The position numbers and the translations under genes are program-made. DNA of 64,000 nucleotides from an uncultured Candidatus Saccharibacteria bacterium (GTDB lineage Bacteria > Patescibacteriota > Minisyncoccia > Phycocordibacterales > UBA9973), in NCBI GenBank assembly GCA_964553015.1, contig CAZKJE010000002.1, positions 14,175 through 78,174 on the forward strand, given 5' to 3'. Shown here in pieces: positions 548 to 49,957 of the stretch; position 1 is the stretch's first letter; each line of letters starts with the position of its first letter. The notes beneath the pieces were generated by a model, which did no database searches, was not told the DNA's origin, and saw only the letters and a list, made by a program, of their open reading frames with translations.

Positions 548-2140
548 GTGGCTTTTGCCAAAATATACTCAGCGCAAGTAAATTTACTTACCGGAGCTAT
601 CGTAACTATAGAAGTGGATCTCTCCCGAGGCCTGCATTCTTTTAGTGTCGTCGGCCTGCCGGACAAAGCAGTCGATGAATCTAAAGACAGGGTATCGGGC
701 GCGATAAAGAATTCCGGTTTCCAGTCCCCGAAGGCAAAAAATCAAAAAATAATTGTTTCTCTTTCACCGGCCGACTTAAAGAAAGAGGGGCCATTTTTTG
801 ATTTAGGAATTGCCATCTCGTACATGAAAGCAGCGGGAGATATTAAATTTGATTCCGAGAAAAAAATATTTTTAGGCGAGCTAGGCTTGGACGGCACACT
901 TCGCCCTATCCGCGGAGCTTTGCCTTTGGCGCAGGAAGCCAGACGGAAAGGATTTGAAGAAATATATCTGCCGAAAGAAAATGCCTCCGAGGCGGCCTTG
1001 GTGGAAGGTATTAAAATTTTTGGCGCTGAAAGTTTGCAGGAAGTCGTGGAGCATATCGATGAGTATAAAAGACCCCCTCTGTCCGATAAAAATAGGACAT
1101 CTCCCCCTTCGCAGGGGGCGAGGAATAAAATTCCGGTCCAGCCGCAGACAAAAGTAAATTACAAAAAAGAAACAAAGGGCGCAGACTTTTCTGATATTCG
1201 CGGACAGGAAGGCGCCAAGCGCGGGCTCGAGATCGCGGCCGCCGGCGGGCATAATATAGCGATGTATGGCCCGCCCGGCACAGGCAAGACGATGCTGGCC
1301 CGGGCTTTTTCGCAATTGTTGCCGGATCTGCCAATTGATGAAGTACTTGAGCTCACGGGAATACATTCTGTGTCCGGCAGCACGCAAGGGGAGCTTGTGT
1401 GCTTTCCCCCGTTTCGCGCCCCGCACCACACTTCTTCTTATGTTTCTATTATCGGCGGGGGAACGTATCCAAAGCCAGGAGAGGTTACACTCGCGCATCG
1501 CGGCGTTTTATTTCTAGACGAGTTTCCGGAATTTGAGAAGAGGGTTATAGAATCTTTACGGCAGCCGCTTGAAGACAATATCGTTTCCATTTCCCGCGCC
1601 AAGGGCACAGCAGTCTTCCCTTCAAATTTTATTTTAGTGGCCGCCATGAATCCCTGCCCGTGCGGAAACGCTGGGAACAAACAAAAGGCCTGCATCTGCA
1701 AGCCGTCCGATTTAGACAGATATAAAAGGAAACTTTCCGGTCCGATTATAGACCGTATTGACCTCTGGGTTTCAGTCGGCAACGTGGATTATAAAAAACT
1801 CGGCGCAAGTGACGATGAGCGGAACGCAGAGAAAAGTGAAAAAATAAAAGATAGAGTTACCCTAGCCAGAGAAATTCAAAAAAAGAGATTTCAAAAATTT
1901 ACAAAAAAAATCAGCACAAACAGTGAAATGAATGTGAAAGACTTAGGCACGATGGCAAAACTCGATGCAAAAGTTCGCGAACTCTTAGACAACAGTGCCG
2001 AAAATCTAGGCCTGTCCGCTCGCGCCTATCACCGCGTAATAAAAATAGCCCGCACTATTGCCGACTTGGAAAATTCTGAAAACGTAGAAGCGAATCATAT
2101 CTTAGAGGCCATTCAATATAGGCCAAAAGTTAACTCATAG
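548..2140 (+). CDS. comM: Mg-chelatase-like AAA+ ATPase, YifB/ComM family (GTG start)
   Basis: Lon-like N-terminal domain, Walker A GPPGTGKT, and the cysteine cluster (CPCGNAG...CICKP) typical of ComM/YifB. Confidence 0.8.
   Translation: MAFAKIYSAQVNLLTGAIVTIEVDLSRGLHSFSVVGLPDKAVDESKDRVSGAIKNSGFQSPKAKNQKIIVSLSPADLKKEGPFFDLGIAISYMKAAGDIKFDSEKKIFLGELGLDGTLRPIRGALPLAQEARRKGFEEIYLPKENASEAALVEGIKIFGAESLQEVVEHIDEYKRPPLSDKNRTSPPSQGARNKIPVQPQTKVNYKKETKGADFSDIRGQEGAKRGLEIAAAGGHNIAMYGPPGTGKTMLARAFSQLLPDLPIDEVLELTGIHSVSGSTQGELVCFPPFRAPHHTSSYVSIIGGGTYPKPGEVTLAHRGVLFLDEFPEFEKRVIESLRQPLEDNIVSISRAKGTAVFPSNFILVAAMNPCPCGNAGNKQKACICKPSDLDRYKRKLSGPIIDRIDLWVSVGNVDYKKLGASDDERNAEKSEKIKDRVTLAREIQKKRFQKFTKKISTNSEMNVKDLGTMAKLDAKVRELLDNSAENLGLSARAYHRVIKIARTIADLENSENVEANHILEAIQYRPKVNS
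1101..1123. repeat. GC-rich palindromic element inserted in-frame in comM (ctcccccttcgcagggggcgagg)
   Basis: CCCCCT/AGGGGG stem; shares the word ccttcgcaggg with the recG copy at 49481-49515; encodes TSPPSQGARN. Confidence 0.6.
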
Positions 2141-2160
2141 AGTTATCCACATCTGGCTTG

Positions 2161-2190
2161 TTGACAGTGAACGCTCGTTCACTTATACTA
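2161..2190 (+). promoter_or_regulatory. Sigma70-type promoter (TTGACA-18-TATACT) with an embedded LexA (Cheo-type) box AGTGAACGCTCGTTCACT at 2166-2183
   Basis: The -35/-10 hexamers are read directly. The spacer holds a perfect 8+2+8 palindrome whose core is GAAC-N4-GTTC. It lies upstream of the small ORF and lexA. Confidence 0.65.
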
Positions 2191-2205
2191 ATTAAGTCGC
2201 AAATA

Positions 2206-2252
2206 CCCCTACCCGGCCTCTCCCTAAAGTAGGGGGAGGAGAAAGGAGGGGG
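2206..2252. repeat. GC-rich palindromic repeat, intergenic copy (cctctccct aaag tagggggagg...)
   Basis: Inverted halves CTCCCTA/TAGGGAG; same family as the copies at 9412, 13252, 40727 and 49481. Confidence 0.55.
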
Positions 2253-2278
2253 TAAATTATAAAATTAAAAACAAAGCT

Positions 2279-2479
2279 ATGAGTCAAACACAATATTTAA
2301 AAATGCTGGAGAGAGAAATCCAAGCAATAAATAAGAGGATAGATCTTAAAATTCTCAAGGGTCAGAATTATCACAAAGAGGCGATAGAACACAAGCTCCT
2401 AATTAGGAAAGTGCGATATCATTCCCGAAGTAACTTTTTGCGTAAATTTTTTCCCACTTTTGCGCAGTTTTCTTTTTAG
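2279..2479 (+). CDS. Small hypothetical protein (66 aa), first gene of the putative LexA-controlled operon
   Basis: ORF lies between the LexA-box promoter and lexA on the same strand, with no terminator between them. Confidence 0.4.
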   Translation: MSQTQYLKMLEREIQAINKRIDLKILKGQNYHKEAIEHKLLIRKVRYHSRSNFLRKFFPTFAQFSF

Positions 2480-2506
2480 TTTCTTTCTAAAAGATAAACA
2501 AAATAA

Positions 2507-3076
2507 ATGATAAGAAATCCCCATCAGATAAAAATAGAATCTTTCTACGGAGAGAATAAGAGGATGCCGACGTATTCGGAAATGATGAAGCTCTTCGGCT
2601 ACAAATCCAAGAATGCGGTTTTTAAAGTCGTGGAGAAATTGATTGACGCAGGGCTCGTCGCCAAAGATCATCTCGGCCGGTTAGTACCCACACAATCTTT
2701 TGGCGAAGTTCCGATGCTTGGGCTGGTGACTGCCGGTTTGCCTGCAAGTGTGGAAGAAGAGCTCGCAGATACTGTGAGCTTGGACGAATTTTTAATAGAA
2801 AAGAAAGCTTTTACATATATGCTAGAGGTGGACGGGGATTCTATGATAGATGCGCACATAGAAAAGGGGGATATGGTTCTCGTCGAGAAGGCAAACCAGG
2901 CTAAAGATATGCAGATAGTCATCGCCGAAGTGGATGGCGAATTTACGATGAAATATTTTAGGCGTGATGGGAATAAATGTTGGCTCGAGCCGGCCAACAA
3001 AAACTACAAACCGATCTATCCGGAACATTCTTTAAATATAAATGCAGTGGTGAAAGCGGTGATTAGGAAATACTAA
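2507..3076 (+). CDS. lexA: LexA repressor (S24 peptidase)
   Basis: N-terminal winged-helix region; C-terminal GDSM serine motif and the downstream catalytic Lys region (EFTMKYFRR). Confidence 0.85.
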   Translation: MIRNPHQIKIESFYGENKRMPTYSEMMKLFGYKSKNAVFKVVEKLIDAGLVAKDHLGRLVPTQSFGEVPMLGLVTAGLPASVEEELADTVSLDEFLIEKKAFTYMLEVDGDSMIDAHIEKGDMVLVEKANQAKDMQIVIAEVDGEFTMKYFRRDGNKCWLEPANKNYKPIYPEHSLNINAVVKAVIRKY

Positions 3077-3092
3077 ATAAGATAGGAAATCA

Positions 3093-3118
3093 AAAAATCC
3101 CCCGAATGGGGATTTTTT
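3093..3118. terminator. Bidirectional intrinsic terminator (aaaaatccccc gaat ggggatttttt)
   Basis: Perfect 9-bp stem flanked by A-run and T-run between convergent lexA and hup. Confidence 0.75.
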
Positions 3119-3166
3119 GATTTCCTAATTTCTCTCGAGAGAACCCCACTTGGCGGGGCAGGAATA

Positions 3167-7523: not shown

Positions 7524-8565
7524 AACAGCAAAATTAATTCTGAAAGACGGTACTATTTTTGAGGCAAAAAGTTTCGGCGCTTCAAAATCTACTGCCGGCG
7601 AAGTGGTTTTTGCCACGGGAATGACCGGCTATCCCGAAGCGCTGACAGATCCATCCTTCAAGGGACAAATTTTAGTAATGACATATCCCTTGATCGGGAA
7701 TTATGGAGTTCCTAAAAAAGAAGACTGGGAATCGGACAAGATCCAAGTTTCCGGGCTTGTAGTGTGTAATTACATAGATACGCCGTCGCATCATGCAAGC
7801 GAGATGACTTTGGCCGAGTGGTTCAAAAAAGAAGGCGTGCCACTTCTTGAGATAAAAGACACAAGGCTGCTTACAGAAAAATTACGGGACGAGGGGGCAA
7901 CACTAGGCAAAATAATTATTGGAAGCAAAAATGTTAATTTTGCAGATCCGAATTTGAGAAACTTGGCTGGAGAAGTGAGTACGAAAGAAATTTATTTTAT
8001 GGGCGAGGGAAAAGATACGATTGTGCTTTTGGATTGTGGCGCCAAGAGGAATATAATTAGAAGCCTTGCAGAAAGAGGGCTTAGGGTTGCAGTAGTTCCG
8101 TGGAATACCGATGTAACCAAATTAGATTTTCAATTTAGCGCGGTAGTGATTTCAAACGGCCCCGGAGATCCAAAGAAAGTAACCGCTACTATCAATAATG
8201 TTAAAAAAATTATTGCTAAAAAAATCCCTACGCTGGGTATTTGTTTGGGAAACCAAATTTTAACTTTAGCCATGGGAGGCACAACGTATAAAATGAAATT
8301 CGGGCACCGAAGCCAGAATCAGCCAGTAGTGCAAACGGGTACAAATAAGTGTTATTTAACAACCCAAAATCATGGTTTTGCAGTTAAACAAATTCCCAAA
8401 AATTTCAGACAATGGTTTCATAATGCGAACGATAATACGAATGAGGGAGTTATTCATGAGACCCTGCCATTTATGTCTGTGCAGTTTCATCCGGAAAGTA
8501 CTCCGGGACCCGTGGACACTGATTGGGTATTTGATTATTTTTTGAAAAAAGCTGATGAAAAATAA
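7507..8565 (+). CDS. carA: Carbamoyl-phosphate synthase small (glutaminase) subunit
   Basis: Class I GATase motif LGICLGNQIL with His/Glu region; overlaps pyrC stop. Confidence 0.9.
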   Translation: MKTENRTAKLILKDGTIFEAKSFGASKSTAGEVVFATGMTGYPEALTDPSFKGQILVMTYPLIGNYGVPKKEDWESDKIQVSGLVVCNYIDTPSHHASEMTLAEWFKKEGVPLLEIKDTRLLTEKLRDEGATLGKIIIGSKNVNFADPNLRNLAGEVSTKEIYFMGEGKDTIVLLDCGAKRNIIRSLAERGLRVAVVPWNTDVTKLDFQFSAVVISNGPGDPKKVTATINNVKKIIAKKIPTLGICLGNQILTLAMGGTTYKMKFGHRSQNQPVVQTGTNKCYLTTQNHGFAVKQIPKNFRQWFHNANDNTNEGVIHETLPFMSVQFHPESTPGPVDTDWVFDYFLKKADEK

Positions 8566-11500
8566 AGTATTTAAAAAAATATTGGTATTGGGTTCGGGAG
8601 CCTTAAAGATCGGCGAAGCGGGAGAATTTGATTATTCCGGCAGCCAAGCCATCAAGGCGCTCAAGGAAGAAAAAGTAAAAGTAATTTTAGTAAACCCAAA
8701 CATCGCAACTTTCCAGACTTCAAAAACTTTTGCCGATGAAGTTTATTTTCTGCCGATAAACGAATATTTTGTGGAAAAAGTTATCAAAAAAGAACGTCCA
8801 GACGGTATCTGCCTTTCTTTCGGTGGACAAACTGCTCTGAACTGCGGACTTGCCCTAGCAGAGAAGGGAATATTTAAAAAATACAATGTAGAAATTTTAG
8901 GAAGTCCGATTTCTTCGATAGAACTCACCGAAGATAGGGAAAAATTTGCAGAACATTTACGAAGCATACATATTCCCGTACCGCCTTCCGGCAGCGCGAC
9001 TACATTTAAAGAAGCAAAAAAAATTGCGGAAAGAATTGGGTTTCCGCTCATGGTCCGTGCAGCGTTTGCCTTGGGCGGACAGAAGTCCGGTGTGGCAGGC
9101 AGTATGGAAGAGCTTGAAGAAATAGTTGCCGGCGCACTCTCAATCTCTCCGCAGGTTTTGATAGAAAAATATCTGCATCACTATAAAGAAATTGAATATG
9201 AAGTGGTCCGCGATAAATTCGGGAACTGCGTTACGGTGTGCAACATGGAAAATTTAGATCCGCTCGGAATACACACCGGGGATTCTATTGTGGTCGCACC
9301 CAGCCAGACACTAAATAATGATGAATATCATGGTCTTCGAGAGGCCAGCATAAAAATAGTTGAGAGTTTGAAAATAGTCGGAGAATGCAATGTGCAGTAT
9401 GCTTTGAACCCGACCTCTCCCAACCCTCCCCTTGGCAGGGGAGGAGCTCTAGATTATTTCGTCATTGAAGTAAATGCCAGATTGTCGCGATCCAGCGCGC
9501 TTGCCTCCAAGGCTACAGGTTATCCGCTTGCATACGTCGCCGCTAAACTTGCCCTAGGAAAAAGTTTGCTTGAAGTGGAAAATAAAATCACAAAAGTAAC
9601 CCAGAGTTTCTTTGAGCCGGCTCTTGATTACGTCGTCGTAAAAATGCCGAGATGGGATCTGTCTAAATTTGCCGGCGCGGCGGAACAAATAGGGAGCGCC
9701 ATGAAATCTGTCGGCGAAGTGATGGCTATCGGGCGAAGCTTTGAAGAAGCGCTCCAAAAAGCTGTGCGCATGTGCGGAGCCGGGCAGGAGGGAATAACTG
9801 ACAATGGTTTTAGAAATAGCGCAGATTTAAATAAATTCCTAACAGTTCCGACACCGAAAAGAATTTTTGCAGTAGCCGAAAGTATAAAAAAGGGAGTAAG
9901 CCTGAAAAAAATCCATAAAATAACAGGAATTGATTTGTGGTTCTTGTATAGAATAAAAAATATTGTAAATACGGAACAAATATTTACAAAAACTAAGTTA
10001 CTCAATAAAGAAAATTTACTTATTTTAAAGCAAACCGGATTTTCAGACAAAAAAATTGCGAGCCTATCGGGCAAAACTGAATTAGAAATCAGAAAACTGC
10101 GAAAAAAGCTTGGCGTAACACCATACATTTTTGCGATAGACACTCTCGCGGGAGAATTTCCGGCGAAAACTAATTATTTATATCTTACCTATCATGGAGC
10201 GCACCATGACATACAGCCTTCAGGCAAGAATGCGATCATGGTTCTGGGTTCCGGTCCTTATCACATAGGCTCCTCGGTGGAATTTGACTGGTCTTCGGTG
10301 TACACCGCGCTGGCTCTCTCCAAATACGACAAACAATCAATCATAGTAAATTGCAATCCGGAAACCGTGTCTACGGACTATGATATTTCTAACAGGCTGT
10401 ATTTTGAGGATTTATCTTTTGAAACAGTGGCAGACATTTTTGAATTTGAAATGGCTGGTGGAATTATTATTTCTGTAGGCGGACAACGGCCGAACAATCT
10501 TGCGAAAAAGCTTTCGCAGGCTGAATTTAAAATTTTAGGCACAAAGGCGGAGGATATCGACCGCGCGGAAGACAGAAATGCCTTTTCAGCCCTTCTGGAC
10601 AAATTGGAAATTCTCCAGCCGACATGGCAAAGCTTTACTTCTAAAAAGGACGCGGAAAAATTTACCAAAACTGAAGGCTTTCCCGTGTTAGTCCGGCCTT
10701 CGTACGTGCTTTCCGGCGCGGCTATGCGAGTGTGCTACAACAAAGCCCAGCTTCACAATTTTATCGGCAAAGCCGCAGTTCTTTCGCCTCTTCATCCCGT
10801 CACCATATCTAAATATATTGAAAATGCCAAAGAGCTTGAATTTGATGCCGTGGCGCAGGAGGGAAAAATAATGGTGTATGGAATTTCCGAGCATGTGGAA
10901 AACGCAGGAGTGCATTCGGGAGACGCGACAATCGTGTATCCGACCCAGCGCGTGTATGCGTCTACGGAATTTCAATTGCGAGAAATATCTAAAAAAATTG
11001 CACAAGAGCTTTCCATAACCGGTCCTTTTAATATTCAATTTTTAGTAAAAAATAATATACCATATGTCATTGAAGTAAATGTGCGGGCCAGCCGAACTTT
11101 TCCGCTCTTATCCAAAGCTATGAACATAAACTTTCCGGAAATAGCAGTGGACAGCTTTATGGGACGTGCCAAAGTACAAAAAGTTACCTACCCGAGAAGC
11201 GTAGTTGTAAAGTCTCCGCAGTTTTCTTTCTCTAGATTGCTCGGAGCAGACCCGATACTTCGTGTGGAAATGTCTTCCACGGGCGAAGCAGCCTGCTTTG
11301 GCAAGGATTACGATGAGGCTCTTTTAAAATCAATACTTTCCACCAACAAATTTGATTTCAAAAATAAAAATGTGCTGCTTTCTTTGGGCGGGGAGTTAAA
11401 CAAAGCTAAATTCTTAGAAACTGCGCAAATGCTCCATGCTCTCGGCTATACCATCTTTGCCACAGATACAACAGCAGAATTTCTTCAAAAACAAAACGTG

Positions 11501-11797
11501 AAATGCAGTGCTGTACGCAAGGCTTTTGAGCGGTCGCCAAACGTACTCAATATAATTTTGAGAAAAAAAGTAGCCTTCGTGGTAAATTTAAGCAAGACAG
11601 AGACAGGAATGAGTGGAAACAAAGAAGAGGGAAAGCGTGTCGTTACAGATGGTTTTCGGATACGACGGGCGACAGTAGACGGACAGATACCATTGTTTAC
11701 AGACTTGCATCTAGCGCGCGCGTTTATCAAAGCCCTATTTCATTACAAAGTAGAAGATTTGGAGATTAAATCTTATCAAGAGTATTTAAAAGAATAA
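8555..11797 (+). CDS. carB: Carbamoyl-phosphate synthase large subunit
   Basis: 1080 aa; duplicated ATP-grasp halves, IEVNxRxSRSSALASKATG motif, C-terminal MGS-like domain. Confidence 0.95.
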   Translation: MKNKVFKKILVLGSGALKIGEAGEFDYSGSQAIKALKEEKVKVILVNPNIATFQTSKTFADEVYFLPINEYFVEKVIKKERPDGICLSFGGQTALNCGLALAEKGIFKKYNVEILGSPISSIELTEDREKFAEHLRSIHIPVPPSGSATTFKEAKKIAERIGFPLMVRAAFALGGQKSGVAGSMEELEEIVAGALSISPQVLIEKYLHHYKEIEYEVVRDKFGNCVTVCNMENLDPLGIHTGDSIVVAPSQTLNNDEYHGLREASIKIVESLKIVGECNVQYALNPTSPNPPLGRGGALDYFVIEVNARLSRSSALASKATGYPLAYVAAKLALGKSLLEVENKITKVTQSFFEPALDYVVVKMPRWDLSKFAGAAEQIGSAMKSVGEVMAIGRSFEEALQKAVRMCGAGQEGITDNGFRNSADLNKFLTVPTPKRIFAVAESIKKGVSLKKIHKITGIDLWFLYRIKNIVNTEQIFTKTKLLNKENLLILKQTGFSDKKIASLSGKTELEIRKLRKKLGVTPYIFAIDTLAGEFPAKTNYLYLTYHGAHHDIQPSGKNAIMVLGSGPYHIGSSVEFDWSSVYTALALSKYDKQSIIVNCNPETVSTDYDISNRLYFEDLSFETVADIFEFEMAGGIIISVGGQRPNNLAKKLSQAEFKILGTKAEDIDRAEDRNAFSALLDKLEILQPTWQSFTSKKDAEKFTKTEGFPVLVRPSYVLSGAAMRVCYNKAQLHNFIGKAAVLSPLHPVTISKYIENAKELEFDAVAQEGKIMVYGISEHVENAGVHSGDATIVYPTQRVYASTEFQLREISKKIAQELSITGPFNIQFLVKNNIPYVIEVNVRASRTFPLLSKAMNINFPEIAVDSFMGRAKVQKVTYPRSVVVKSPQFSFSRLLGADPILRVEMSSTGEAACFGKDYDEALLKSILSTNKFDFKNKNVLLSLGGELNKAKFLETAQMLHALGYTIFATDTTAEFLQKQNVKCSAVRKAFERSPNVLNIILRKKVAFVVNLSKTETGMSGNKEEGKRVVTDGFRIRRATVDGQIPLFTDLHLARAFIKALFHYKVEDLEIKSYQEYLKE
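9412..9447. repeat. GC-rich palindromic element in-frame in carB (ctctcccaaccctccccttggcaggggaggagctc)
   Basis: CTCCCCT-TGGC-AGGGGAG perfect hairpin. It adds ~TSPNPPLGRGGA immediately before the conserved YFVIEVNAR segment. Confidence 0.65.
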
Positions 11798-12721: not shown

Positions 12722-13810
12722 CTACTGGCTTTCCAAAAACCTGAAGATTTTTTCGTTGGTGAGGACGTTTTCGGCATGCATGCGGGCGCGTTCCGGATCT
12801 GCTTCTTTGTAGTGCTCAAGTATCGCCGAGACTTCTTTAGCCACATCGGTTTCATCTGGCTCTATTTTTTCCGCTTTTGCTATTTCGTTTAATATAAGAG
12901 CTAATTTAGCTTTTTTCTCGGCATCTTTTCTAAAATCTTTTCTTAAGTCCTCCATATTTTTATTCAAGTGCTTCAGATAATCCTCAAATTTTAGCCCCAT
13001 CTGGGTGATGTCGGACTCCATGCGGTATAAAATCTTTTCCAATTCTGCTTCGACTAAAATATCCGGAATTTCAAGCGTGCTTTCGTCAATTATTTTTTCA
13101 ATAATTTGTAAACGCATTTTTTCTTTCTGTAAATTTTCTTTTTCTAGCTTAATATTTTCTTTCAGTTTTGTTCTGAAATCTTCTACGTCCTTAAAAGGTC
13201 CCATGGCTTTCACAAATTCATCATTGAATTCCGGAAGCTCTTCTTTCACCTCTTCCCCCGCCTTCCCCGAAGGGGAAGGAGCCCCTCCCTCTTGGGGAGG
13301 GGTTTGGGGTGGAGTGGCCACATGTATCTTTGGTGCGCGGGATTTTCGTATATCCATTATCGTATTTTCCATATCTTCATCTGTCACAATGATATTCTTT
13401 TCTGCATCAGTGACTTTAGAAATTACTTTTTTCGCCACGGCTTTATAATCCGGAAGCTTAATTTCAGGCAATACTGCAGTTTTTATTTTGAATCCGAGGG
13501 GGTTCTTTCGGGCAAGCTTGGTGATAGAAATATCCGGTCTACTAATAGCATCTATTTTATTTTCTTCTGCTATCTTGGGGTAGGCCTCTCCGAGCGCCAT
13601 CTCGGCCATTTCTCCCAAGATCTGCGCTTCCGGGACATTTGAAACAAGGACATTTTCCGGAACTTTGCCTTTCCTGAATCCCGGGAGTTCCACATTCTCG
13701 CCGATCTTTTTTAAGGCAAGGCTATAGTAGCTCTCAAAAACGTCGGCATCTATCTCGCCTTCTATTTCCACTTCGCTCTTTGGCAGTTTCTTTATATTTA
13801 TTTTTGGCAT
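12722..13810 (-). CDS. tig: Trigger factor (short form, apparently lacking a PPIase domain)
   Basis: N-terminal ribosome-binding signature GFRKGKVP; 362 aa; acidic C-terminal arm. Confidence 0.75.
   Translation of the reverse strand: MPKINIKKLPKSEVEIEGEIDADVFESYYSLALKKIGENVELPGFRKGKVPENVLVSNVPEAQILGEMAEMALGEAYPKIAEENKIDAISRPDISITKLARKNPLGFKIKTAVLPEIKLPDYKAVAKKVISKVTDAEKNIIVTDEDMENTIMDIRKSRAPKIHVATPPQTPPQEGGAPSPSGKAGEEVKEELPEFNDEFVKAMGPFKDVEDFRTKLKENIKLEKENLQKEKMRLQIIEKIIDESTLEIPDILVEAELEKILYRMESDITQMGLKFEDYLKHLNKNMEDLRKDFRKDAEKKAKLALILNEIAKAEKIEPDETDVAKEVSAILEHYKEADPERARMHAENVLTNEKIFRFLESQ
13252..13316. repeat. Tandem pair of GC-rich palindromic elements in-frame in tig
   Basis: ccttccccgaaggggaagg plus cccctccctcttggggagggg; the reverse complement of ggggaggggtttgggg matches the recG-copy word ccccaacccctccc. 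Confidence 0.65.
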
Positions 13811-14186: not shown

Positions 14187-14864
14187 CTAATTTTCATTTT
14201 CTTCGCTATCACTATTGTCCCCAACTGGCTTCTCTGCCTTAATTGCCTTAATTTTGGTTTTCACAGCATCTTTAAGGGATTTTACTGCGTCTCCCAGAGC
14301 TTTATGAGCTTCTTTTATAAGGGCTTGTGTTTCTTTTGTTAAAGTTTGGAGAGTTGCTTTATTTTCCTCGCTAAGCTTTTCTATGGAAGTGCCAAAAAGG
14401 GCATTGGCCTCGGCAATTTTTGCCTTAGCTTCGTCTATTTTGGTTTCAGCTGTGGCGACAAATGCTTCAGCTCCTGCTGTGTCCACTCCTTTCGCTTTTA
14501 ATTTAGCGATATGGGCGACTACTCTTTCTTTTAAGTTTGTCATTCTCAAAACCGCTCCGTCAAATCTCTCCAGCGCTTTTTCGCGCCCTACGATGCGGGC
14601 TTCTTTTATTTTTGCCTTAGCCGCATCCCTTTCAGTTTTTAAAGATGCTCGCAAAGCTTCCATTTTTGCTTTCGCTTCTTCTCTTTTCATTTCAAACTCC
14701 TTTCTAAATGCGTCTCTATTTGCTTCCCATTCTTTTCTCGCTTCTTCGCGCTTTAGCCGCAGGTCATCCCTAACAGCACCTCCATTTTCTTCCGCGAGTA
14801 CAGAAGAAGTGTTAAAAGAAAGCACTAACGCCAACACCGCAAAAAAACTTAAATATTTTTTCAT
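14187..14864 (-). CDS. Secreted coiled-coil protein, hypothetical
   Basis: Signal peptide (MKKYLSFFAVLALVLSFNTSSVLA), Ala/Lys/Glu-rich heptad-like sequence. Confidence 0.5.
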   Translation of the reverse strand: MKKYLSFFAVLALVLSFNTSSVLAEENGGAVRDDLRLKREEARKEWEANRDAFRKEFEMKREEAKAKMEALRASLKTERDAAKAKIKEARIVGREKALERFDGAVLRMTNLKERVVAHIAKLKAKGVDTAGAEAFVATAETKIDEAKAKIAEANALFGTSIEKLSEENKATLQTLTKETQALIKEAHKALGDAVKSLKDAVKTKIKAIKAEKPVGDNSDSEENEN

Positions 14865-14910: not shown

Positions 14911-16926
14911 TTATATCAGAAAAGCCACGAGAAGCAATGCAACAATGTTGAGTATCTTTATCATCGGATTAATAGCTGGGCCGGCTGTATCTTTATAAGG
15001 GTCGCCGACAGTATCGCCGGTGACAGCGGCCTTGTGCGCATCGCTGCCTTTGCCTCCATGATAGCCTTGCTCTATGTGTTTTTTAGCGTTATCCCAAGCT
15101 CCTCCTCCGGAAGTCATTGATATTGCCACGAAGAGGCCGGTAATGATGGAGCCGACTAACAGTCCGCCCAAAACTATTAAGCCGTTAGTTTTTCCAAAAA
15201 TAATTACTACTAATATAGGGGCGAGGACAGGTATGAGGGCGGGGAGAACCATTTGCTTTATGGCTGCGCCGGTGATTATAGAGACTGCTTTTGCATAATC
15301 AGGCTTTGCAGTACCTTCCATTATTCCTTTTATTTCTCTGAACTGTCTTCGGATTTCTTCAACTACTTTTCCGGCAGTCTTGCCCACTGCTTCCATGCAA
15401 AGCGCTCCGAAATAATATGGAAGCAACCCCCCGATAAATAAGCCGACGATGACGTACGGATTACTAAGATCAAAAGTAAGGCTTTTGCCAGCTTTTATTA
15501 TTTCTTCAGTGTAAGAAGCGAAGAGCACCAGAGCCGCGAGGCCTGCCGAGCCTATGGCGTATCCTTTGGTGACTGCTTTGGTAGTATTTCCGACAGCATC
15601 CAATGGATCTGTAACATCGCGAACTTCTTTTGGAAGCTCCGCCATCTCCGCGATGCCTCCGGCATTGTCAGTGATAGGTCCGTATGCATCTATGGCGACA
15701 ATTATTCCGGTCATGGAAAGCATGGACATTGCCGCGACGGCAATACCGTAGAGTCCGCCGTAATTGTAACTAAGCAATATTCCGAGAACGATGGTAATAA
15801 GAGGCCACGCCGTAGATTTCATTGAAATTGCTAATCCCTGAATGACGTTTGTGCCGTGGCCGGATACTGAAGCCAGCGCGATAGACTGAACAGGGGAATA
15901 TTTTGTAGAGGTAAAATATTCTGTGATGACTACCAATGCACCAGTCACGAGCAAGCCTACAATGGAGCAGATGAACAGATCCATCACGCTGTATGCGCCG
16001 TTTCCGGACATAAGTATTTTTGTAACAGGATAAAACAAAGCTCCGGCAATTAATCCGGAGGCGATGAGCCCTTTATACAAAGCACCCATTATGTTTTGGC
16101 TACTTTTAGTTAATCGTACAAACCAAGTACCGATGATAGAAGCGAATATTGCCATACCGCCGATGACCAGAGGATAAATAATCGCATTTTCAAAATCTAC
16201 AAAAAGAAGCGATCCCAAAAGCATCGTGGCCACAGAAGTGACAGCGTAAGTTTCAAATAAGTCAGCGGCCATGCCGGCGCAGTCTCCGACGTTATCTCCG
16301 ACATTGTCGGCGATAACTCCCGGATTCCTCGGATCATCTTCGGGAATGCCGGCTTCAAGTTTACCCACGAGGTCTGCGCCCACGTCTGCAGCTTTAGTAA
16401 AAATTCCTCCGCCCAATCGAGCGAAAATAGAAATAAGCGAAGCGCCGAATCCGAGGCCGACTAGCGCATTCACGTCTTTAGTAACCATATAAAACAAAGT
16501 TACGCCGAGAAGCGCCAGACCGACGACTAAAAGGCCGGTAACTGTTCCGCCGCGGAAAGCAAGACTAAGTGCCGAATCTATGCCGTCTCGGGCCGCCTCT
16601 GTCGTGCGTACATTTGCGCGCACAGATACATTCATGCCGATGTATCCGGCAAGAGCAGAGAAAACAGCCCCAACTAAAAACCCAAAGGCCATAGTCCAGC
16701 CGAGTTTTTCTATAAATCCGATCGCGAAGAAAAGTATGAGAGCTATATAGCCGATAGTTTTATATTGTTTGTTCAAGTAAGCTCCGGCGCCGTCTTGGAT
16801 TGCCTTGGCGATCTCCTGCATGCGCTCATTACCGGGGCTCTTTTTTAAAATTAGTCTTGCTAAAAATAAACCGTATACGATAGCCACCACAGAACTTATT
16901 AATGCAAACAATAAAAATGAATTCAT
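14911..16926 (-). CDS. hppA: Membrane-bound proton/sodium-translocating pyrophosphatase
   Basis: 671 aa polytopic protein; GGG(I)[16 protein letters not shown] and DNVGDNVGD PPase motifs. Confidence 0.9.
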
Positions 16927-16948: not shown

Positions 16949-18109
16949 TTATTCTTCTTTTACTTCGTCAGTGGAAGCTATTTCGCCTCCCATTCCTTTT
17001 ATATCTATTCTCCAGCCGGTAAGCTTGGCGGCAAGGCGGACATTTTGCCCTCCTTTACCGATAGCGAGCGAAAGCTGATCATCGGCTACTTCTACGGTCG
17101 CCTTATGTTCCGTTTCGTCTACGTTGATAGAAATAACTTTTGCCGGAGAAAGCGAATTTGAAACGAACTGTTTTGGATCTCCCGACCACGGAATTATATC
17201 AATTTTTTCTCCGGAAAGTTCATTGGTTATGGTATTTACCCGGGTTCCTTTCTGGCCGACACAAGAGCCGACTGCATCTATGTGCTCATCGTTTGAGTAC
17301 ACTGCGATCTTGGTGCGCGCTCCGGCTTCGCGGGCTACGGATTTTATTTCCACAATGCCATTTTCTATTTCCGGCGCTTCAGTAGCAAAAAGTTTTTCCA
17401 CAAATTTTGGATGCGTGCGGGACAGGCGAAGATTTATTCCCCGCGGGGTGTCTTCCACGCTGTACAAATATGCGCGCACTCGGCGTCCGCGTTCCCAGAA
17501 CTCTCCGGGAATTTGTTCTTCGGCCGGCAATATGCCTGTCGCTCGGTTGAAGTCCACATATACATTGCCCCGCTCTACCTTTTGCACTATGCCGGAAATT
17601 ATTTCGCCTTCCTTGGTGCCGTACTCATCTATGATTGAAGTGCGTTCCGCTTCGCGTATCTTTTGGACTATGACTTGCTTTGCTGTCTGGGCGGCGATGC
17701 GGCCGTAATCATCTTTGGCTTCGAGCGGAAAAATTACTTCATCGTTGAGCTCCACCCCCTTTTTTATTTTCTTGGCATCTTCTAAGAGAATGTGATGCTC
17801 GGGATTAAAATGTACGCGTTCTTCGCCTTCATCTTTTACCGAATATTCGGCATGTTCGCCAAGTTGATGTTTTTTATCATCTTCTAATATCGCAATTGTT
17901 TCATCTACAACTATCTTCACCTGATAGAAATCCGTCTTGCCGCTATCCATGTCAAATTTTGCACGGATAATTTGTCCTTTCTTGCCGTAATCTTTCTTAT
18001 AAGCCGCCGCCATTGCCTGCTCGATGGCTTCGAGTATTTTTGCTTTTGGTATTTTTCGTTCTTCTTCCAGCTGTTCCAAGGCTGATTTGAATGTTTTTAG
18101 GTCTAACAT
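16949..18109 (-). CDS. nusA: Transcription termination/antitermination factor NusA
   Basis: N-terminal domain, S1 domain and two KH domains. Confidence 0.9.
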
Positions 18110-27158: not shown

Positions 27159-28439
27159 ATGAAAAAAGATTTCAAAAAAATTAATAATCAGTCCCTGCCT
27201 GCCGGCCGGCAGGGCGGAGCAGCGATGCTGATAGCCGTAGTTTTTTTTCTGTTTATTTCTTTAGCAATAATTTCCGGCCTCGTGTCGCCGTCTGTGCGCG
27301 AATTCAAAAATGCCAATGATGCGGTCAGATCGAGACAAAGTTTATTTTTGTCCGAATCGGGAACAGAGGACGCCTATTTTAGATTGAAAAATGCAAAAAC
27401 TATAAGCTCTCCGGTGGTGCTGGTTTTAAACGGTAATACTGCGACAACCACTATCACAGATTCCGGATATAACGAAAAAACTGTAACGGCGCTTGGAGAT
27501 GTTTCAGCGCGGCAGAGAAAAAGTGAAATTGTTCTGACCACGGGCGACGGGGTTTCTTTCAGCTATGGTATCCAGTCAGGGGTCGGCGGATTTGTTATAG
27601 GTAACGCTGTCGTGAATGGTAATGTATATTCAAACGGAAATATCACAGGGGCTAATGGCGCTACTATTACCGGTTCGGCTTTTGCCGCCGGAGCGACGGG
27701 GGTTATTGATAATATAGATGTGGGACAGGGAGGCATAGGGGACATAAAAGCGCATACTGTGAATGATTCTACTGCTGCCGGCAATTTATATTGCCAAGTT
27801 GGCTCGAACAATAATAAATCCTGCAATACATCTCAGGCTGATCCGGAAATAGCGCCGATGCCAATCACGGAAGAGATGATTAATAAATGGAAAGCAGATG
27901 CAGAACTTGGCGGAATTTTTACTGGAAACATGATTATATCCGAGCAGACGAGCCTAGGGCCGAAAAAAATTACAGGCAATTTGTCTATTGAGGCTGATGT
28001 AGTTATTACGGGTACTGTTTATGTAACAGGGAATATTACGACTAATAACGGCGCAGAGGTTTCTTTGAGCAGTTCTTATGGGGCTCTCGGCGGAATTATT
28101 GTTGCTGACGGAAGAGTAACTCTTTCCAATAACGTTAAATTTTTTGGATCTGGCACTGCAGGCACATACATATTATTAGTCACTACAAGCGCGTGCCCGA
28201 CGGACTGTTCAGGCTTGAATGCTCTGGAAATTTTAAACAACGTAGGCGCAATACTGGTGAATGCTCAAAATGGCACGGTGCACCTCAACAATAATGTTAC
28301 CCTGAACGAAGTTGTGGGAAATACAATTATTGTAGACAATAGCGCGGTGATAAATTATCTTTCGGGGCTTGCTAACCAAAATTTTTCTTCCGGACCTTCG
28401 GGAGGATGGAACATTGATAGCTGGAAGGAGGTGGAATAA
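27159..28439 (+). CDS. PilX-like N-terminal anchor followed by an Asn/Gly-rich repeat (putative beta-helix) pilus-associated protein
   Basis: RQGGAAMLIAVVFFLFISL hydrophobic N-terminus (PilX_N-like); NGN/TGN repeats. Confidence 0.5.
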   Translation: MKKDFKKINNQSLPAGRQGGAAMLIAVVFFLFISLAIISGLVSPSVREFKNANDAVRSRQSLFLSESGTEDAYFRLKNAKTISSPVVLVLNGNTATTTITDSGYNEKTVTALGDVSARQRKSEIVLTTGDGVSFSYGIQSGVGGFVIGNAVVNGNVYSNGNITGANGATITGSAFAAGATGVIDNIDVGQGGIGDIKAHTVNDSTAAGNLYCQVGSNNNKSCNTSQADPEIAPMPITEEMINKWKADAELGGIFTGNMIISEQTSLGPKKITGNLSIEADVVITGTVYVTGNITTNNGAEVSLSSSYGALGGIIVADGRVTLSNNVKFFGSGTAGTYILLVTTSACPTDCSGLNALEILNNVGAILVNAQNGTVHLNNNVTLNEVVGNTIIVDNSAVINYLSGLANQNFSSGPSGGWNIDSWKEVE

Positions 28440-39070: not shown

Positions 39071-39145
39071 TTGATATTAGTAGCAAAATAGACTTATGAA
39101 ACTACAAGAAGGATAATAGCGTAACTAAACCATAAAGTCAATTTG

Positions 39146-39535
39146 TGGAGATGGGGGAAATTGAATCCCCGTGCAGAAGGTTTTTGCAAAGAAGTCTACA
39201 TGCGTAGCGCGCTTTTTGTTTTAAATTAAAAAATTATGAAACGCGCCAAATATTTTTTAACCGAGTTCTTTTGTTTTGCGAGAGCGTCAGAACAGGCGTT
39301 CAAGCTATCCCGATAATGTTATGCCTCGTCTTATATATCGGAAGTCTATAAGAGAGACACCACCTCAGGCTTACGCGAAAGATGGAGCGAAAGCGAGCGC
39401 ATTACCGAAGTAAGGCGAACGCATTGCTGTGAAAGCTGATTTTGCAATTAGCTGTTGAACGAATTTTTACGAGATTACGTTCATTCTCGGCATGCATCAA
39501 TAACAAATGGCCAACTGTCTATGCCTTGCATCCCC
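39146..39535 (-). ncRNA. ssrA: tmRNA (SsrA)
   Basis: 5' GGGGAUG pairs with 3' CAUCUCC (G3-U70 Ala identity wobble) plus discriminator A. T-arm GGGGA-UUCAAUU-UCCCC. An in-frame GCA at nt 91 opens a tag frame ending ...NALAFAPSFA-UAA. Lies immediately downstream of smpB. Confidence 0.7.
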
Positions 39536-40642: not shown

Positions 40643-40726
40643 TATAAAAATTTTATAATTAAATCTCGCTTTTCGGTGTAATGAGACATAACTTTATATT
40701 AACATAGATTTTTATTCCCCTCTTGA

Positions 40727-40850
40727 GGGGTGGCTCGCGTGCAAGACGGGGTGGATAATTTACCTCACCCTGCTGCCCTCTCCTGTAAAGGGGAGGGGAA
40801 AATTCATCCACCTCCCTCCGACCCATGTCGGAGTACTCCTCAAGAGGAGA
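40727..40850. repeat. Composite cluster of GC-rich palindromic elements (cccctcttgagggg ... ccctctcctgtaaaggggagggg ... ctccgacccatgtcggag ... ctcctcaagaggag)
   Basis: Four hairpins in an AT-rich intergenic region. The middle unit matches the 2206-2252 copy. The overlapping ORF 40730-40930 is judged spurious. Confidence 0.55.
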
Positions 40851-40926
40851 ATTTTTTACTCATATACTACTCTAATCCTATAAATAAGGGTTTTTTGACT
40901 TTGCTAGCAACAAAGTGTAAAAATGC

Positions 40927-43323: not shown

Positions 43324-43998
43324 ATGGCGAGAAAACAAGATAAACAAAGCGTTTTGGCTATGCGCAAGAGAGGAATGAGCTACAGCCAGATCAAAGGGAA
43401 AATAAAAATAAGCAAAAGCACTTTGAGTGTCTGGCTTAAAGATTTACCACTCGATGAAAAACGGATAAGAGAATTAAGAGACAATAGCCCTATTCGTATT
43501 GAAAAATTCAGAAATACAATGCGAGCAAAAAAAGAGATGAGACTTTATGAGGTATATAAAAAAGTCGCAAATGATATTTGTGATCTCTCAAAAAGAGATT
43601 TATTTTTAACAGGCTTGTTCTTATATTGGGGAGAAGGCACGAAATCACAAAATTCTTTAGTTGCCCTCACAAATACAAATCCAGCCATGGTTAAGTTTTT
43701 CATACAATGGCTAAAATTGTTTGGAGTAAAAAGCAAAGATTTGAAAATTAAACTACATTTATACTCCGATATGAAAATTAAAGAAAGTCTTGATTTTTGG
43801 TCAAAAGAGCTTAATATTCCGATAAGCCAGTTTTATAAGCCGTATGTTAAGAAAAATACTCTCAAATCTATCTCGTATAAAAATGGCTTTGGAAAAGGAA
43901 CATGTAGTGTTATATTTGGGAGTAGAGATCTTTGGGAATATATAACAATGGGATTGAAATATATTTCTGAAATTAGTAATGAAAATTTCCGCCCCTAG
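43324..43998 (+). CDS. HTH-domain protein with a LAGLIDADG-like motif (possible free-standing homing-endonuclease-like protein); its 3' end overlaps the tRNA
   Basis: N-terminal HTH (RKRGMSYSQIKGKIKISKSTLSVWLKD); LTGLFLYWGEGTKS resembles a LAGLIDADG block; stop codon lies within tRNA positions 8-10. Confidence 0.4.
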   Translation: MARKQDKQSVLAMRKRGMSYSQIKGKIKISKSTLSVWLKDLPLDEKRIRELRDNSPIRIEKFRNTMRAKKEMRLYEVYKKVANDICDLSKRDLFLTGLFLYWGEGTKSQNSLVALTNTNPAMVKFFIQWLKLFGVKSKDLKIKLHLYSDMKIKESLDFWSKELNIPISQFYKPYVKKNTLKSISYKNGFGKGTCSVIFGSRDLWEYITMGLKYISEISNENFRP

Positions 43999-44061
43999 CT
44001 CAGTTGGTAGAGCAATCCGCTTATACCGGATCGGTCCTTGGTTCGAGTCCAAGGGGGCGGA
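43989..44061 (+). tRNA. tRNA-Ile (anticodon UAU)
   Basis: Manual cloverleaf: acceptor CCGCCCC/GGGGCGG, D-arm GCTC-AGTTGGTA-GAGC, anticodon arm ATCCG-CTTATAC-CGGAT (U33, anticodon UAU, A37), T-arm CTTGG-TTCGAGT-CCAAG; CCA not encoded. Confidence 0.8.
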
Positions 44062-47124: not shown

Positions 47125-47157
47125 GCGCGAAATAGGAAAGCTCTAAAATAAAAGTTT

Positions 47158-47715: not shown

Positions 47716-47749
47716 CACTATATTTTGACGGCCGTCTAAAAGTGACGCT

Positions 47750-49957
47750 TTACTCGAAGTGAAACTCTCCGGCTTTGGTGCGGACTTTTTGTTTTAGGAG
47801 AGGATATTTACTTAGTTCGGGGTCAGATTCTATCATGCTAATAGCTTCAGTTCTAGCCGCTTCTACCATTTTTATATTTTTTATAGCTTCCATGCCGAGA
47901 TCAGTGATGCCCCACTGCTTTGTACCGCCAAGCTCTCCGGCGCCTCGGAGTGTGAGATCTAGCTCTGCCAATTCAAAACCATTTTTTGCAGTCTTGAGCG
48001 CTTTAAGGCGGTCTACGGTTTTTGCGCTTTTGGCTTCAGCAAAAATATAACAATATGCCTGATGCGAACTTCGGATCACCCGTCCGCGGAGCTGATGCAA
48101 TTGGGCCAATCCAAAACGCTCCGCACCTTCTATGATAATTATTGTCGCATTTGGAACATTCACTCCGACTTCTACCACGGACGTAGCGCATAAGATATGT
48201 ATCTTGCCTTCGGTAAATTCCTGCATTACCTCTTCTTTTTTTTCTCTGCTCATCTTGGAATGAAGTACGCCTATTTCATACTCTTTGAACACTCGCTCTT
48301 TTAATATTTTAGCTTCAGCTACGGCAGATTTTACATTTAAAGCCATTTCTTTTTCAGGATCAGGCTCAAAAATTCGCGGGCAGATGACGTAGAGCTGTCT
48401 ACCGGCCTCCAATTCTTTTCTGATTGCTTCGTAAGTGTTAGTCCTCTTGTCCGGAGTAATAATCTCTGTAATTATTTGTTTTCTTCCTACCGGCATTTCG
48501 TCTAAAAGCGACAGATCCAAATCTCCGTATATCGTGAGCGCGAGCGTGCGGGGGATAGGAGTTGCGGTCATGGATAGCAGGTGCGGAGCGATGTTATCTT
48601 TGCGCACTAACTTTCTTCTTTGTGCTGTGCCGAAGCGATGCTGTTCGTCTATCACCACAAGTGCAAGATTTTTAAATTTAACAGTTTTTTGAATGAGCGC
48701 ATGTGTACCGATAAGTATAGGTATCTCGCCGTTTCCGATCCATTTCAAAAGTTGTGCTCGGGAAATTGTTGTCCAGCTTGCCCCGTCCTTGGCGGGACCG
48801 ATTGTTTTTGATGGAAATTTTCTGCAGCCACTTCCAGTGATCAAGCCTATGTTTATCGGCAAATGCTTGAAATATTCTATGAAAGATTCAAAATGTTGCG
48901 TTGCTAATATTTCTGTCGGCGCCATGTATGCCACTTGCAAATTACCAAAATTTTGTGGTTTACCCTGGGTGTAATCGAAGGGCCTTTGCTGTACTGTCAC
49001 ATAGCTTGCAGTCGCAGCTACAGCAGTTTTACCGGAGCCGACATCGCCTTCGAGTAATCGCGACATCGGAAAATTCTTTGCCAGATCAGCAAGTATCGTT
49101 GCGATGGATTTTTCTTGTGATTTTGTCGGTTTAAAAGGGAAGCGCTTCAGAAATTCTTCTGCACTTTTCTTTTCAGGTTTTATTTGAAAAGATTTATTTT
49201 TTCTATATTCAAATTTATCATGCTGGCGTTCCAGCTGAATACAGAATACTTCTTCAAAAGCGAATCGTTTGCGTGCCGACTGCGCATCGGCTTTATTTTT
49301 CGGTTTGTGTATCCAAATAAGCGCGGTTTTCAGAGTAGGCAAATGATATTTTTTTAAAATTTCGGCCGGAATATAATCTTCAATATTATCCAAAGTTTTT
49401 TCTTTAAATATTTTTTCAATTGCGTGGTAAAACCATTTGGAAGTGATACCTCGCGTCTCCGCATAAATTGGATAAGACAGACCCTCCCCCAACCCCTCCC
49501 TTCGCAGGGCGGGGCTTTTAAATAATGTGTCGTGCGAATCTATCGGCATATTCGGCAATTTTTCAAATTCCGGATTAGCAAGATACATGCCATTTTTGCC
49601 TTGCGTGACTTTGCCCGTCAGCTTCACATTTTCGCCGTCATGGATCATTTTTGCCAAGTAAGTCTGATTGAACCATGTGATTTTTATTTTTCCAGATAAA
49701 TCTTCTATTTCGCCTTCGCCCATGGGCATTTTTGAACGAAATCCTTTTTTGGTTTTCAATTTTGAAACTTTGCCATATACAGTAGCCATATCTCCGGCAA
49801 CTAATTCAGCAATATTCTTTACCTCGCTGATATCGCTGTAGCGGACAGGGAAGTGAAACAAGAGATCAGCCACAGAAAAAATCTTGAGCTTATGCAAAGC
49901 CCTTTTCTGGCTTTCATCCAGCCTGAATTTTAGTTCAAGCTTATCGCTTAAATTCAT
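47750..49957 (-). CDS. recG: ATP-dependent DNA helicase RecG (start at MNLSDK; the ORF-track 50215 start overlaps the pilin gene region)
   Basis: Wedge/OB N-domain, SF2 helicase motifs (GDVGSGKT, DEQHRFG), TRG motif region. Confidence 0.85.
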   Translation of the reverse strand: MNLSDKLELKFRLDESQKRALHKLKIFSVADLLFHFPVRYSDISEVKNIAELVAGDMATVYGKVSKLKTKKGFRSKMPMGEGEIEDLSGKIKITWFNQTYLAKMIHDGENVKLTGKVTQGKNGMYLANPEFEKLPNMPIDSHDTLFKSPALRREGLGEGLSYPIYAETRGITSKWFYHAIEKIFKEKTLDNIEDYIPAEILKKYHLPTLKTALIWIHKPKNKADAQSARKRFAFEEVFCIQLERQHDKFEYRKNKSFQIKPEKKSAEEFLKRFPFKPTKSQEKSIATILADLAKNFPMSRLLEGDVGSGKTAVAATASYVTVQQRPFDYTQGKPQNFGNLQVAYMAPTEILATQHFESFIEYFKHLPINIGLITGSGCRKFPSKTIGPAKDGASWTTISRAQLLKWIGNGEIPILIGTHALIQKTVKFKNLALVVIDEQHRFGTAQRRKLVRKDNIAPHLLSMTATPIPRTLALTIYGDLDLSLLDEMPVGRKQIITEIITPDKRTNTYEAIRKELEAGRQLYVICPRIFEPDPEKEMALNVKSAVAEAKILKERVFKEYEIGVLHSKMSREKKEEVMQEFTEGKIHILCATSVVEVGVNVPNATIIIIEGAERFGLAQLHQLRGRVIRSSHQAYCYIFAEAKSAKTVDRLKALKTAKNGFELAELDLTLRGAGELGGTKQWGITDLGMEAIKNIKMVEAARTEAISMIESDPELSKYPLLKQKVRTKAGEFHFE
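49481..49515. repeat. GC-rich palindromic element in-frame in recG (accctcccccaacccctcccttcgcagggcggggc)
   Basis: Shares ccttcgcaggg with the comM copy and cccaaccc(c)tccc with the carB copy; encodes PALRREGLGEGLS. Confidence 0.65.

Follow-up and report, generated by a model that had tools for sequence, protein, structure and literature searches.

Short GC-rich palindromic elements occur in frame in conserved genes of a Candidate Phyla Radiation bacterium

We analysed a stretch of 64,000 nucleotides (the window; GC content ~41%) from the genome of an uncultured bacterium of the Candidate Phyla Radiation (CPR; contig CAZKJE010000002.1, positions 14,175 to 78,174) and identified a family of short GC-rich palindromic elements that is present at six loci. 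Four copies lie in frame within the conserved genes comM, carB, tig and recG, and two are intergenic. We consider it probable that the copies are a selfish, non-autonomous DNA element, comparable to repetitive extragenic palindromes (REPs) and transposable elements of the miniature inverted-repeat type (MITEs), that is tolerated in frame. The data that support this are the membership of the copies in one family, their excess over chance, their absence from most orthologues, independent events in the same loops, mixed frames and orientations, openness in all six reading frames and presence across phyla. The nearest relatives, based on CarB, are metagenome-assembled genomes of Minisyncoccia, Paceibacterota and Nomurabacteria (up to 87% identical). 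Loci from other genomes are referred to by L numbers.

The hairpin family

Using a scan for perfect GC-rich hairpins (stem of at least 6, loop of 3-8, GC of at least 70%, with expectations from Markov-1 simulations), we identified five hairpins in the window whose 5' arm is pyrimidine and whose 3' arm is purine, where 0.07 are expected, and none of the opposite polarity (purine 5' arm). Four of the five are members of the family (one in comM, one in carB and two in tig; Table 1). A mismatch-tolerant scan recovered exactly seven hairpins of the C-arm to G-arm type (0.2 expected); the three added are those of recG and of the two intergenic copies. All seven fall within the six loci that the original prediction listed, and the list is therefore complete for the window. 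Hairpins are present at every one of these loci, as had been claimed, but only four of the seven are perfect. The same polarity dominates in 1.33 Mb of related CPR DNA (27 hairpins vs 4 of opposite polarity), and at least eight hairpins of this kind occur within 20 kb of L003.

The copies share an architecture that consists of an outer C-rich arm, e.g., (C)ACCCC, a spacer of two bases (AA, AG or GG) and an inner hairpin of the form CCYTCCCC-loop-GGGGARGG, with stems of 6-9 bp and loops of 3-6 nt. Some copies have a second inner hairpin plus a matching outer G-rich arm. The elements range from 26 to 70 nt. A full extended hairpin is found in carB of L011 (GACCCCTCCCC-AA-CCCTCCCCT-TCGC-AGGGGAGGG-AGAA-GGGTGGGGTG). 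Outer arms are also present in the tig copy and in one of the intergenic copies (type A, below), whereas the 3' outer arm is missing in the carB and recG copies of the window. A 22-mer, CCCAACCCYYCCCTTSGCAGGG, is common to carB (9419-9440) and recG (49488-49509), and was matched in none of 100 dinucleotide-preserving shuffles with three mismatches tolerated. Judged from their sequences, by common architecture and long shared words, the six loci are one family, which bears out the relatedness first proposed.

When single short hairpins are subjected to dinucleotide shuffling, the z-scores are weak (-1.2 to -2.7) because a composition of C runs and G runs folds in any case; the significance of the family therefore rests on counts at the genome level. 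Five of the six window copies point one way on what is apparently a single replichore (not significant at n=6). At gathering thresholds, Rfam identified only a tmRNA and one tRNA in the window and no family matching the hairpins, and in permissive mode it returned only sub-threshold matches to generic hairpins (miRNA precursors).

Table 1. Host genes, palindromic elements and other features of the window
Feature	Position	Strand	Description
comM	548..2140	+	Mg-chelatase/AAA+ competence helicase; Pfam Mg_chelatase, ChlI, Mg_chelatase_C; alignment to solved ComM 8rxd
comM element	1070..1123 (probable span)	+	AGACCCCCTC-(GTCC..GGAC)-CTCCCCCTTCGCAGGGGGCGAGG; hairpin 1103-1118; encodes RPPLSDKNRTSPPSQGAR
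Type A extended hairpin, intergenic	2204..2254	+	TACCCCTACCCGGCCTCTCCCTAAAGTAGGGGGAGGAGAAAGGAGGGGGTA; hairpin 2217-2239; 64 nt past comM stop
carB	8555..11797	+	Carbamoyl-phosphate synthase large subunit; Pfam; PDB alignments
carB module	9412..9447	+	GACCTCTCCC-AA-CCCTCCCCT-TGGC-AGGGGAGG-AGC; hairpin 9425-9444
tig	12722..13810	-	Trigger factor lacking the peptidyl-prolyl isomerase (PPIase) domain; Pfam Trigger_N and Trigger_C only
tig two-hairpin element	13247..13316	-	Hairpins 13261-13279 and 13282-13302; outer arms CACCTCTTCCCCC / GGGGTGGAGTG
nusA	16949-18109		
GC-rich palindrome CCCTGCCTGCCGGCCGGCAGGG	27193-27214		Different palindrome; within the first 20 codons of an open reading frame (27159-28439)
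tmRNA gene	39143-39535	-	Rfam
Composite multibranch palindrome, intergenic	40714..40851	.	139 nt; fold -70 kcal/mol, z = -5.5
Family module in composite palindrome	40763-40798		CCTCACCC-TGCTG-CCCTCTCCT-GTAA-AGGGGAGGG; hairpin 40776-40797
tRNA gene	43989-44061	+	Rfam
recG	47750..49957	-	735 aa; identical to database protein P0001; Pfam
recG module	49480..49516	+	GACCCTCCCCC-AA-CCCCTCCCT-TCGC-AGGGCGGGG-CT; hairpin 49493-49514, one arm mismatch
GC-rich hairpin GCGGGCACACCCGAGTGCCCGC, intergenic	56884-56905		Mixed arm composition; outside the hairpin family

Copies within conserved genes

Pfam confirms the four host genes, and the reading frame is open across the element in each of them, as had been predicted. 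All four genic copies are located in loops or linkers. The number of added residues was put at 8-20; the stretches encoded by the elements are in fact 9-23 residues long, and the proteins gain fewer residues than this relative to their homologues in related genomes (about +4 in RecG, about +6 in CarB and +7 to +11 in ComM compared with most relatives). The result that would have refuted insertion, equivalent residues in unrelated orthologues, was not obtained. Most of the CPR CarB proteins and of the close RecG relatives that were compared have short loops, and the Tig and ComM proteins of relatives have other linkers. Thus, the view that these are lineage-specific insertions stands.

In CarB, the module encodes (T)SPNPPLGRGGA immediately N-terminal to LDYFVIEVNARLSRS, in agreement with the earlier placement of the extra residues directly before a conserved block. 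In PDB alignments, human CPS1 lacks the ten residues PNPPLGRGGA that precede (L)DYFVIEVNARLSRS. The window CarB scores 1068 bits against human mitochondrial CPS1 and 785 bits against E. coli CarB. The loop has 17 residues in the window, while a short form of 11 residues (mostly LNPNPKNGELD or near) is present in 45 of 80 CPR proteins. Indels over 79 carB genes are clustered at three loops, and among inserts of at least five residues 19 of 38 fold far better than gene-matched controls. Across CPR lineages (L001-L080), unrelated palindromes enlarge the loop between ECNVQ[FY]A and [FY][FY]VIEVN, as well as loops at residues ~420 and ~478. For example, L040 carries a 66-nt palindrome (ccccgttagaagtc...gacttctaacgggg), and in L066 and L072 the palindromes are long and AT-rich, and the encoded peptides resemble NSNLEFVSDFELRASDF.

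Read on the minus strand, the recG module encodes SPALRREGLGEG; it is located in the loop after the wedge domain, based on alignment to 1gm5. We compared the protein with 120 relatives (P0001-P0120; 81-89% identical). The short loop LF[KT]-KNGISNTGF-SYP is found in most of them, and the loop of the window type (SPALRREGLGEGL or PSLRREGQGEGL) in only six. The hairpin is intact in recG of L082 (CCCCTCCCT-GCGA-AGGGAGGGG), whereas the window copy has a mismatch in one arm. The module occurs in this loop in both orientations (window vs L206). The loop also hosts the comM-type subfamily and other palindrome families, which were recognised by their peptides (e.g., ARNA..AGG and GGxTSGG). In all, at least four palindrome families are found at this one loop (peptides SPALRREGLGEG, RPPRPPGTPPSQGEKYEGF, TPSPQPSPEGRGG, AKGGYTSGGNK and SPARNADNIASAGG, with DNA in L206, L207 and L208). 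An AlphaFold2 model of RecG built with 54 close relatives is poor (mean pLDDT 53); it places the insert in coil (pLDDT <50), which is weak evidence only.

The tig element encodes TPPQTPPQEGGAPSPSGKAGEE at the position where the PPIase domain is missing; the PDB alignment of the window protein omits trigger factor residues ~141-238. Trigger factors of this lineage have a linker of roughly 45 residues instead of the PPIase domain, and it is highly variable between relatives. The linker of the window protein is 30 residues long vs 18-25 in relatives without the element, and other relatives have a His/Glu-rich linker. The element is also present in tig of L003, L031 and L019 in decaying form, with one arm degraded in the L019 copy. 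One of its hairpins, CCTTCCCCTTCGGGGAAGG, is identical in carB of L003. The two-hairpin element recurs in NusA of L003, and with the opposite hairpin order in CarB of that locus. In NusA of both L003 (~16540-16610, minus strand) and L031 the two-hairpin element (TSPRPLSKGEGQAPSPLGKAGDEVRG) occupies a variable loop, in which L048 has HAPARNTFGIADAGG (a peptide of ARNA..AGG type) and L016 the related KPARLSTQSGASG. The window NusA contains neither the two-hairpin element nor an insert of the L048/L016 type.

The comM element is located in the linker that joins the N-terminal domain and the AAA+ domain. This linker is shorter in the solved structure and in most relatives. The subfamily word of this copy (AGACCCCCTC...CTCCCCCTTCGCAGGGGGAG) recurs in the RecG loop of L207 and, judged by loop peptides, elements of the same subfamily are present in the RecG loop of about eight further relatives. 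Relative to the bounds first given, two loci were revised: the comM element probably begins at 1070, and the stretch 40727-40850 is part of the composite palindrome, which contains one family module.

Frames, orientation and absence of stop codons

A single word is used in different frames and on both strands. In CarB, it is read as PNPPLGRGG in the window and as TPPQPSPSQGRE in L011, and in RecG the module is read from the opposite strand relative to CarB. Across long open reading frames (ORFs) of low-GC contigs, including LigA-like and UvrD-like genes (judged by motifs), five of the six combinations of frame and orientation are used. All four genic copies are free of stop codons in all six frames (tested over 1098-1123 for comM and 13249-13316 for tig), as is the extragenic module of the Rahnella type described below; the background is 0.4-12% for windows of equal length. 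The genic variants lack stops because the arms contain only C/T and then G/A and the loops (TTCGCA, TTGGCA and similar) are also stop-free. The two intergenic copies are not stop-free: type A is open in only three of six frames (2204-2252 tested) and the composite in only two. The genic copies encode Pro/Ser/Leu followed by Gly/Arg/Glu, and thus a flexible, hydrophilic loop. The different frames, both orientations and the repeatedly hit loops point to DNA insertions that are filtered by selection, rather than to conservation of a peptide or to an RNA signal with a fixed orientation. This pattern argues for an element that acts at the level of DNA.

Intergenic copies and neighbouring features

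Near-identical copies of the type A hairpin are present in L002, L003, L016, L036 and L044 (six species together with the window), and the 3' half is invariant across the six. In the window, the hairpin is upstream of a 66-aa ORF and a gene for a LexA-like S24 peptidase. The arrangement is shared by three genomes (window, 2204-2254; L016, 905-956; L044, 712-762), in which type A is 27-29 nt 5' of an ORF of 66-73 aa that is followed by one of 188-189 aa (the S24 peptidase of the window). The L036 copy is immediately before carB. The type A hairpin might have a regulatory role. The only GTAG in the window copies is inside the type A loop.

The composite palindrome has no Rfam family match and is ~1.2 kb from the tmRNA gene. 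Two further GC-rich hairpins were identified in the window (Table 1). One of these, the fifth perfect hairpin of the scan, encodes SLPAGRQGG, and related CCTGCCTgcgcAGGCAGG hairpins were seen in L003 and L048. The other is intergenic.

Occurrence beyond the CPR

In metagenome contigs, the 22-mer CCCAACCCYYCCCTTSGCAGGG is matched exactly at least 120 times. Most of these matches are from genomes that have megabase contigs and a GC content of 51-57%. In these genomes the module forms both of the ~40-nt inverted ends of a ~105-nt repeat, which occurs singly or in tandem. The repeat is present at full length in Rahnella megaplasmids, where it is downstream of genes in the cases checked. It is unannotated, and its ends form hairpins; examples are a tandem copy in L128 (1900-2121) and a copy on plasmid PRA1 of Rahnella aquatilis HX2 (L205; 162606-162745). 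Up to 12 places on a single Rahnella megaplasmid carry it.

We also compared the CarB loop region of L011 (60 nt, insert included) with sequences from other phyla. Matches were found in Rahnella (36 nt, 97%), Aeromonas (46 nt, 91%), Moraxella and Shewanella (39 nt, 92%), Azospirillum (about 84%), and Pseudanabaena and Paenibacillus. The near-identity is between a CPR gene and plasmids of Rahnella, Aeromonas and Moraxella. The copies in Rahnella, Moraxella, Shewanella and Pseudanabaena are intergenic and have no adjoining transposase gene. The core word has no match in 5,426 E. coli genomes and only one in IMG/VR; phages are therefore not the main carriers. The family had been described as belonging to a different lineage from that of the Rickettsia elements. 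This holds for the genic inserts, which are from CPR bacteria, but the core word also occurs in several other phyla, where it is intergenic wherever checked.

The presence of the module in distant phyla, with no dedicated transposase nearby in any context examined, would imply either that a minimal mobile element has spread between phyla or that widely shared host machinery recognises the module. Tentatively, a single ~35-nt module that is stop-free in six frames (ACCCCACCCCAACCCTCCCCTTCGCAGGGGAGGG and close variants) may be maintained or exchanged across CPR bacteria, Gamma- and Alphaproteobacteria and Cyanobacteria, and may be a recurrent source of new residues at hot-spot loops of essential proteins in gene-dense CPR genomes, although we regard this as a doubtful proposition at present.

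Possible route of mobility

For the mechanism of insertion, the enzyme responsible and the neutrality of the inserts for the host proteins, we infer the following. Copies would enter the chromosome by an event at the level of DNA. The most plausible mobiliser would be a single-strand transposase of the Y1/HUH type (REP-associated tyrosine transposase, RAYT, or IS200) that recognises hairpins and acts in trans; patch-like recombination with another copy is an alternative route. Selection would retain only copies that keep the frame in permissive surface loops or inter-domain linkers, and this would account for the recurrent hits at particular loops of CarB, RecG, Tig, ComM and NusA. After insertion, copies would decay neutrally.

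Genes for Y1_Tnp/RAYT-like proteins are present in eight related loci (L082, L007, L031, L033, L024, L025, L015 and L036). These proteins contain YVNLN in addition to an HUH motif, which reads HYH. The L082 protein, the only one scored, reaches 29.4 bits for Pfam Y1_Tnp (cut-off 23) and 19.7 for NCBIfam RAYT (cut-off 80). On either side of the Y1 gene of L007 (~14236-14736, minus strand) lies CCCCGAGGG-ttc/gaa-CCCTCGGGG, and the Y1 gene of L082 (3248-3844, minus strand) is flanked by AGGAGC-taa-GCTCCT. Each is flanked by its own hairpin and, thus, hairpin-mobilising systems exist in the clade. As far as can be told from the gene neighbourhoods, this looks like a REPtron architecture in CPR genomes.

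In the 838 kb around 125 metagenome copies, we identified no Y1 homologue near the module. An autonomous insertion sequence with the same ends was likewise not found in these 838 kb or beside the plasmid copies, in a search that was not exhaustive. Paired modules 1.4 kb apart in L105 were set aside; they flank an apparent CRISPR array (repeated ORF peptides).

Alternative explanations

Several observations weigh against a mobile, selfish element. The 64-kb window contains no transposase gene, and no Y1 gene flanked by this hairpin family was identified in the window or in related loci. Comparison of empty and filled sites in RecG, CarB and Tig shows no target-site duplication or clean boundary (the nearest relatives are 81-89% identical in protein); filled alleles replace 3-7 loop residues instead of simply adding to them, and several genic copies lack one outer arm. 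Orthologous tig copies contain one compensatory double change (CCTTCCCC/GGGGAAGG vs CCTTCTCC/GGAGAAGG), which could mean that structure is being maintained. Finally, the 36-nt identity of 97% between a CPR bacterium and Rahnella is hard to explain without transfer between phyla or a conserved recognition function.

The compensatory change, together with loops that often resemble UUCG or GNRA tetraloops, would fit functional structures selected in place, either as mRNA elements (for pausing at domain boundaries or protection from nucleases) or as flexible Pro/Gly-rich linkers, in which case the palindromy would result incidentally from CCN (Pro) codons that precede GGN (Gly) codons. Every genic copy is at a domain boundary or loop, and in type A, in addition to the invariant 3' half, the C/T variation is opposite an invariant G and is tolerated as G-U. 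We nevertheless consider this explanation unlikely. The element is absent from most orthologues, the five combinations of frame and orientation leave no conserved peptide, and the strand that carries the stable tetraloop, sense or antisense, differs between genes. Copies also decay (the arm mismatch in recG of the window, the degraded arm in tig of L019), and the module is intergenic in other phyla. Furthermore, a by-product of Pro-then-Gly codons cannot yield identities of 22-36 nt that include loop and spacer in unrelated genes. These shared loops and spacers, now in unrelated phyla as well as genes, also make it distinctly improbable that the palindromes arose locally and repeatedly when replication switched template or slipped within C-rich codons of the loops (e.g., AACCCAAACCC for NPNP) rather than as mobile copies. 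Quasi-palindrome correction is an established mutational process that could also account for the compensatory change; the empty CarB site (aacccaaaccc) is similar to the outer arm of the module (ACCCCAACCC), and filled alleles resemble replacements more than clean insertions. However, the empty sites in RecG, Tig and ComM are A-rich and have no similarity to the module, and the exact 22-mers in metagenomes have conserved flanks, where chance would give at most a few (a rough estimate). The genome encodes ComM, and the host could be a naturally competent CPR bacterium in which the copies act as uptake signal sequences, comparable to those of Neisseria and Haemophilus. Uptake sequences accumulate as hairpin-forming inverted pairs, also in coding regions and in variable parts of proteins. 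Yet the elements are sparse (about 1 per 10 kb), their density is strongly uneven between related genomes, the sequence differs between copies, and the word is present in unrelated phyla with different uptake systems, so that we judge a role in DNA uptake very improbable indeed. A selfish palindromic element tolerated in frame thus remains our preferred explanation.

Implications

If the copies are selfish, the streamlined genomes of CPR bacteria do harbour selfish DNA. As intergenic space is scarce in them, palindromic elements would lodge in permissive loops of essential proteins and reshape them repeatedly; in CarB, RecG, Tig, ComM and NusA, such hot-spot loops are hit by several palindrome families. 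This would account for unusual segments rich in Pro and Gly, and for differences in length among CPR orthologues, and such segments should not be taken as functional motifs. The inserts may serve as natural markers of sites at which enzymes tolerate insertion, and the module provides a concrete sequence for testing the spread of minimal hairpin repeats.

Comparison with known systems

In-frame REPs and Rickettsia palindromic elements (RPEs) have already been described in other bacteria. In the literature, we found no report of in-frame palindromes in CPR bacteria or of the sequence word itself.

The family resembles MITEs, REP-RAYT systems and systems of terminal inverted repeats (TIRs) with their associated tyrosine transposases (TIRYTs) in that the unit of the Rahnella type has ~40-nt terminal inverted repeats and in that relatives encode Y1/RAYT-like genes flanked by hairpins. 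It differs from them in that no target-site duplication, autonomous parent or Y1 gene flanked by the family was seen, and in that the CPR copies are mostly solo modules.

Numerous unrelated housekeeping genes contain RPEs in frame, at sites that protein folding permits (Ogata et al. 2000, 2002, as cited in PMC10969869). As first described, they are ~150 bp long and each encodes a conserved peptide (PMC10969869). The window family is likewise inserted in frame at tolerated positions of functional protein genes, but its members are 26-70 nt long, are read in any frame and encode no conserved peptide (RPEs were compared by description, not by sequence). The analogy to RPEs that was originally drawn is therefore apt for the presence of in-frame palindromes in genes, and less so for their size.

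The intragenic GTAG/CGTC REPs are a closer counterpart. These GC-rich stem-loops are short (20-40 nt), occur singly or in pairs and in multiple copies, and are for the most part extragenic (Di Nocera, De Gregorio & Rocco 2013, PMC3733652). Some are in frame in genes for repair and replication (UvrABCD, RecBCD, ligase, PolA) of Opitutus, Xanthomonas, Thauera and others, and different REPs occupy about one site in Xanthomonas recB genes (PMC3733652). The window family differs from these in that it lacks a GTAG/CGTC end tag (window copies and the Rahnella-type unit were checked), has arms that are strictly C/T and then G/A, is genic at four of the six loci rather than predominantly extragenic, is hosted by a CPR bacterium and has a word that crosses phyla. 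It is like them in being a dispersed, multi-copy family of short GC-rich imperfect palindromes (seven hairpins at six loci in 64 kb), in its size and stem-loop form, and in its hosts (RecG, ComM, LigA-like and UvrD-like proteins), and among known systems it is to these intragenic REPs, rather than to the classical RPEs, that the family is closer (PMC3733652).

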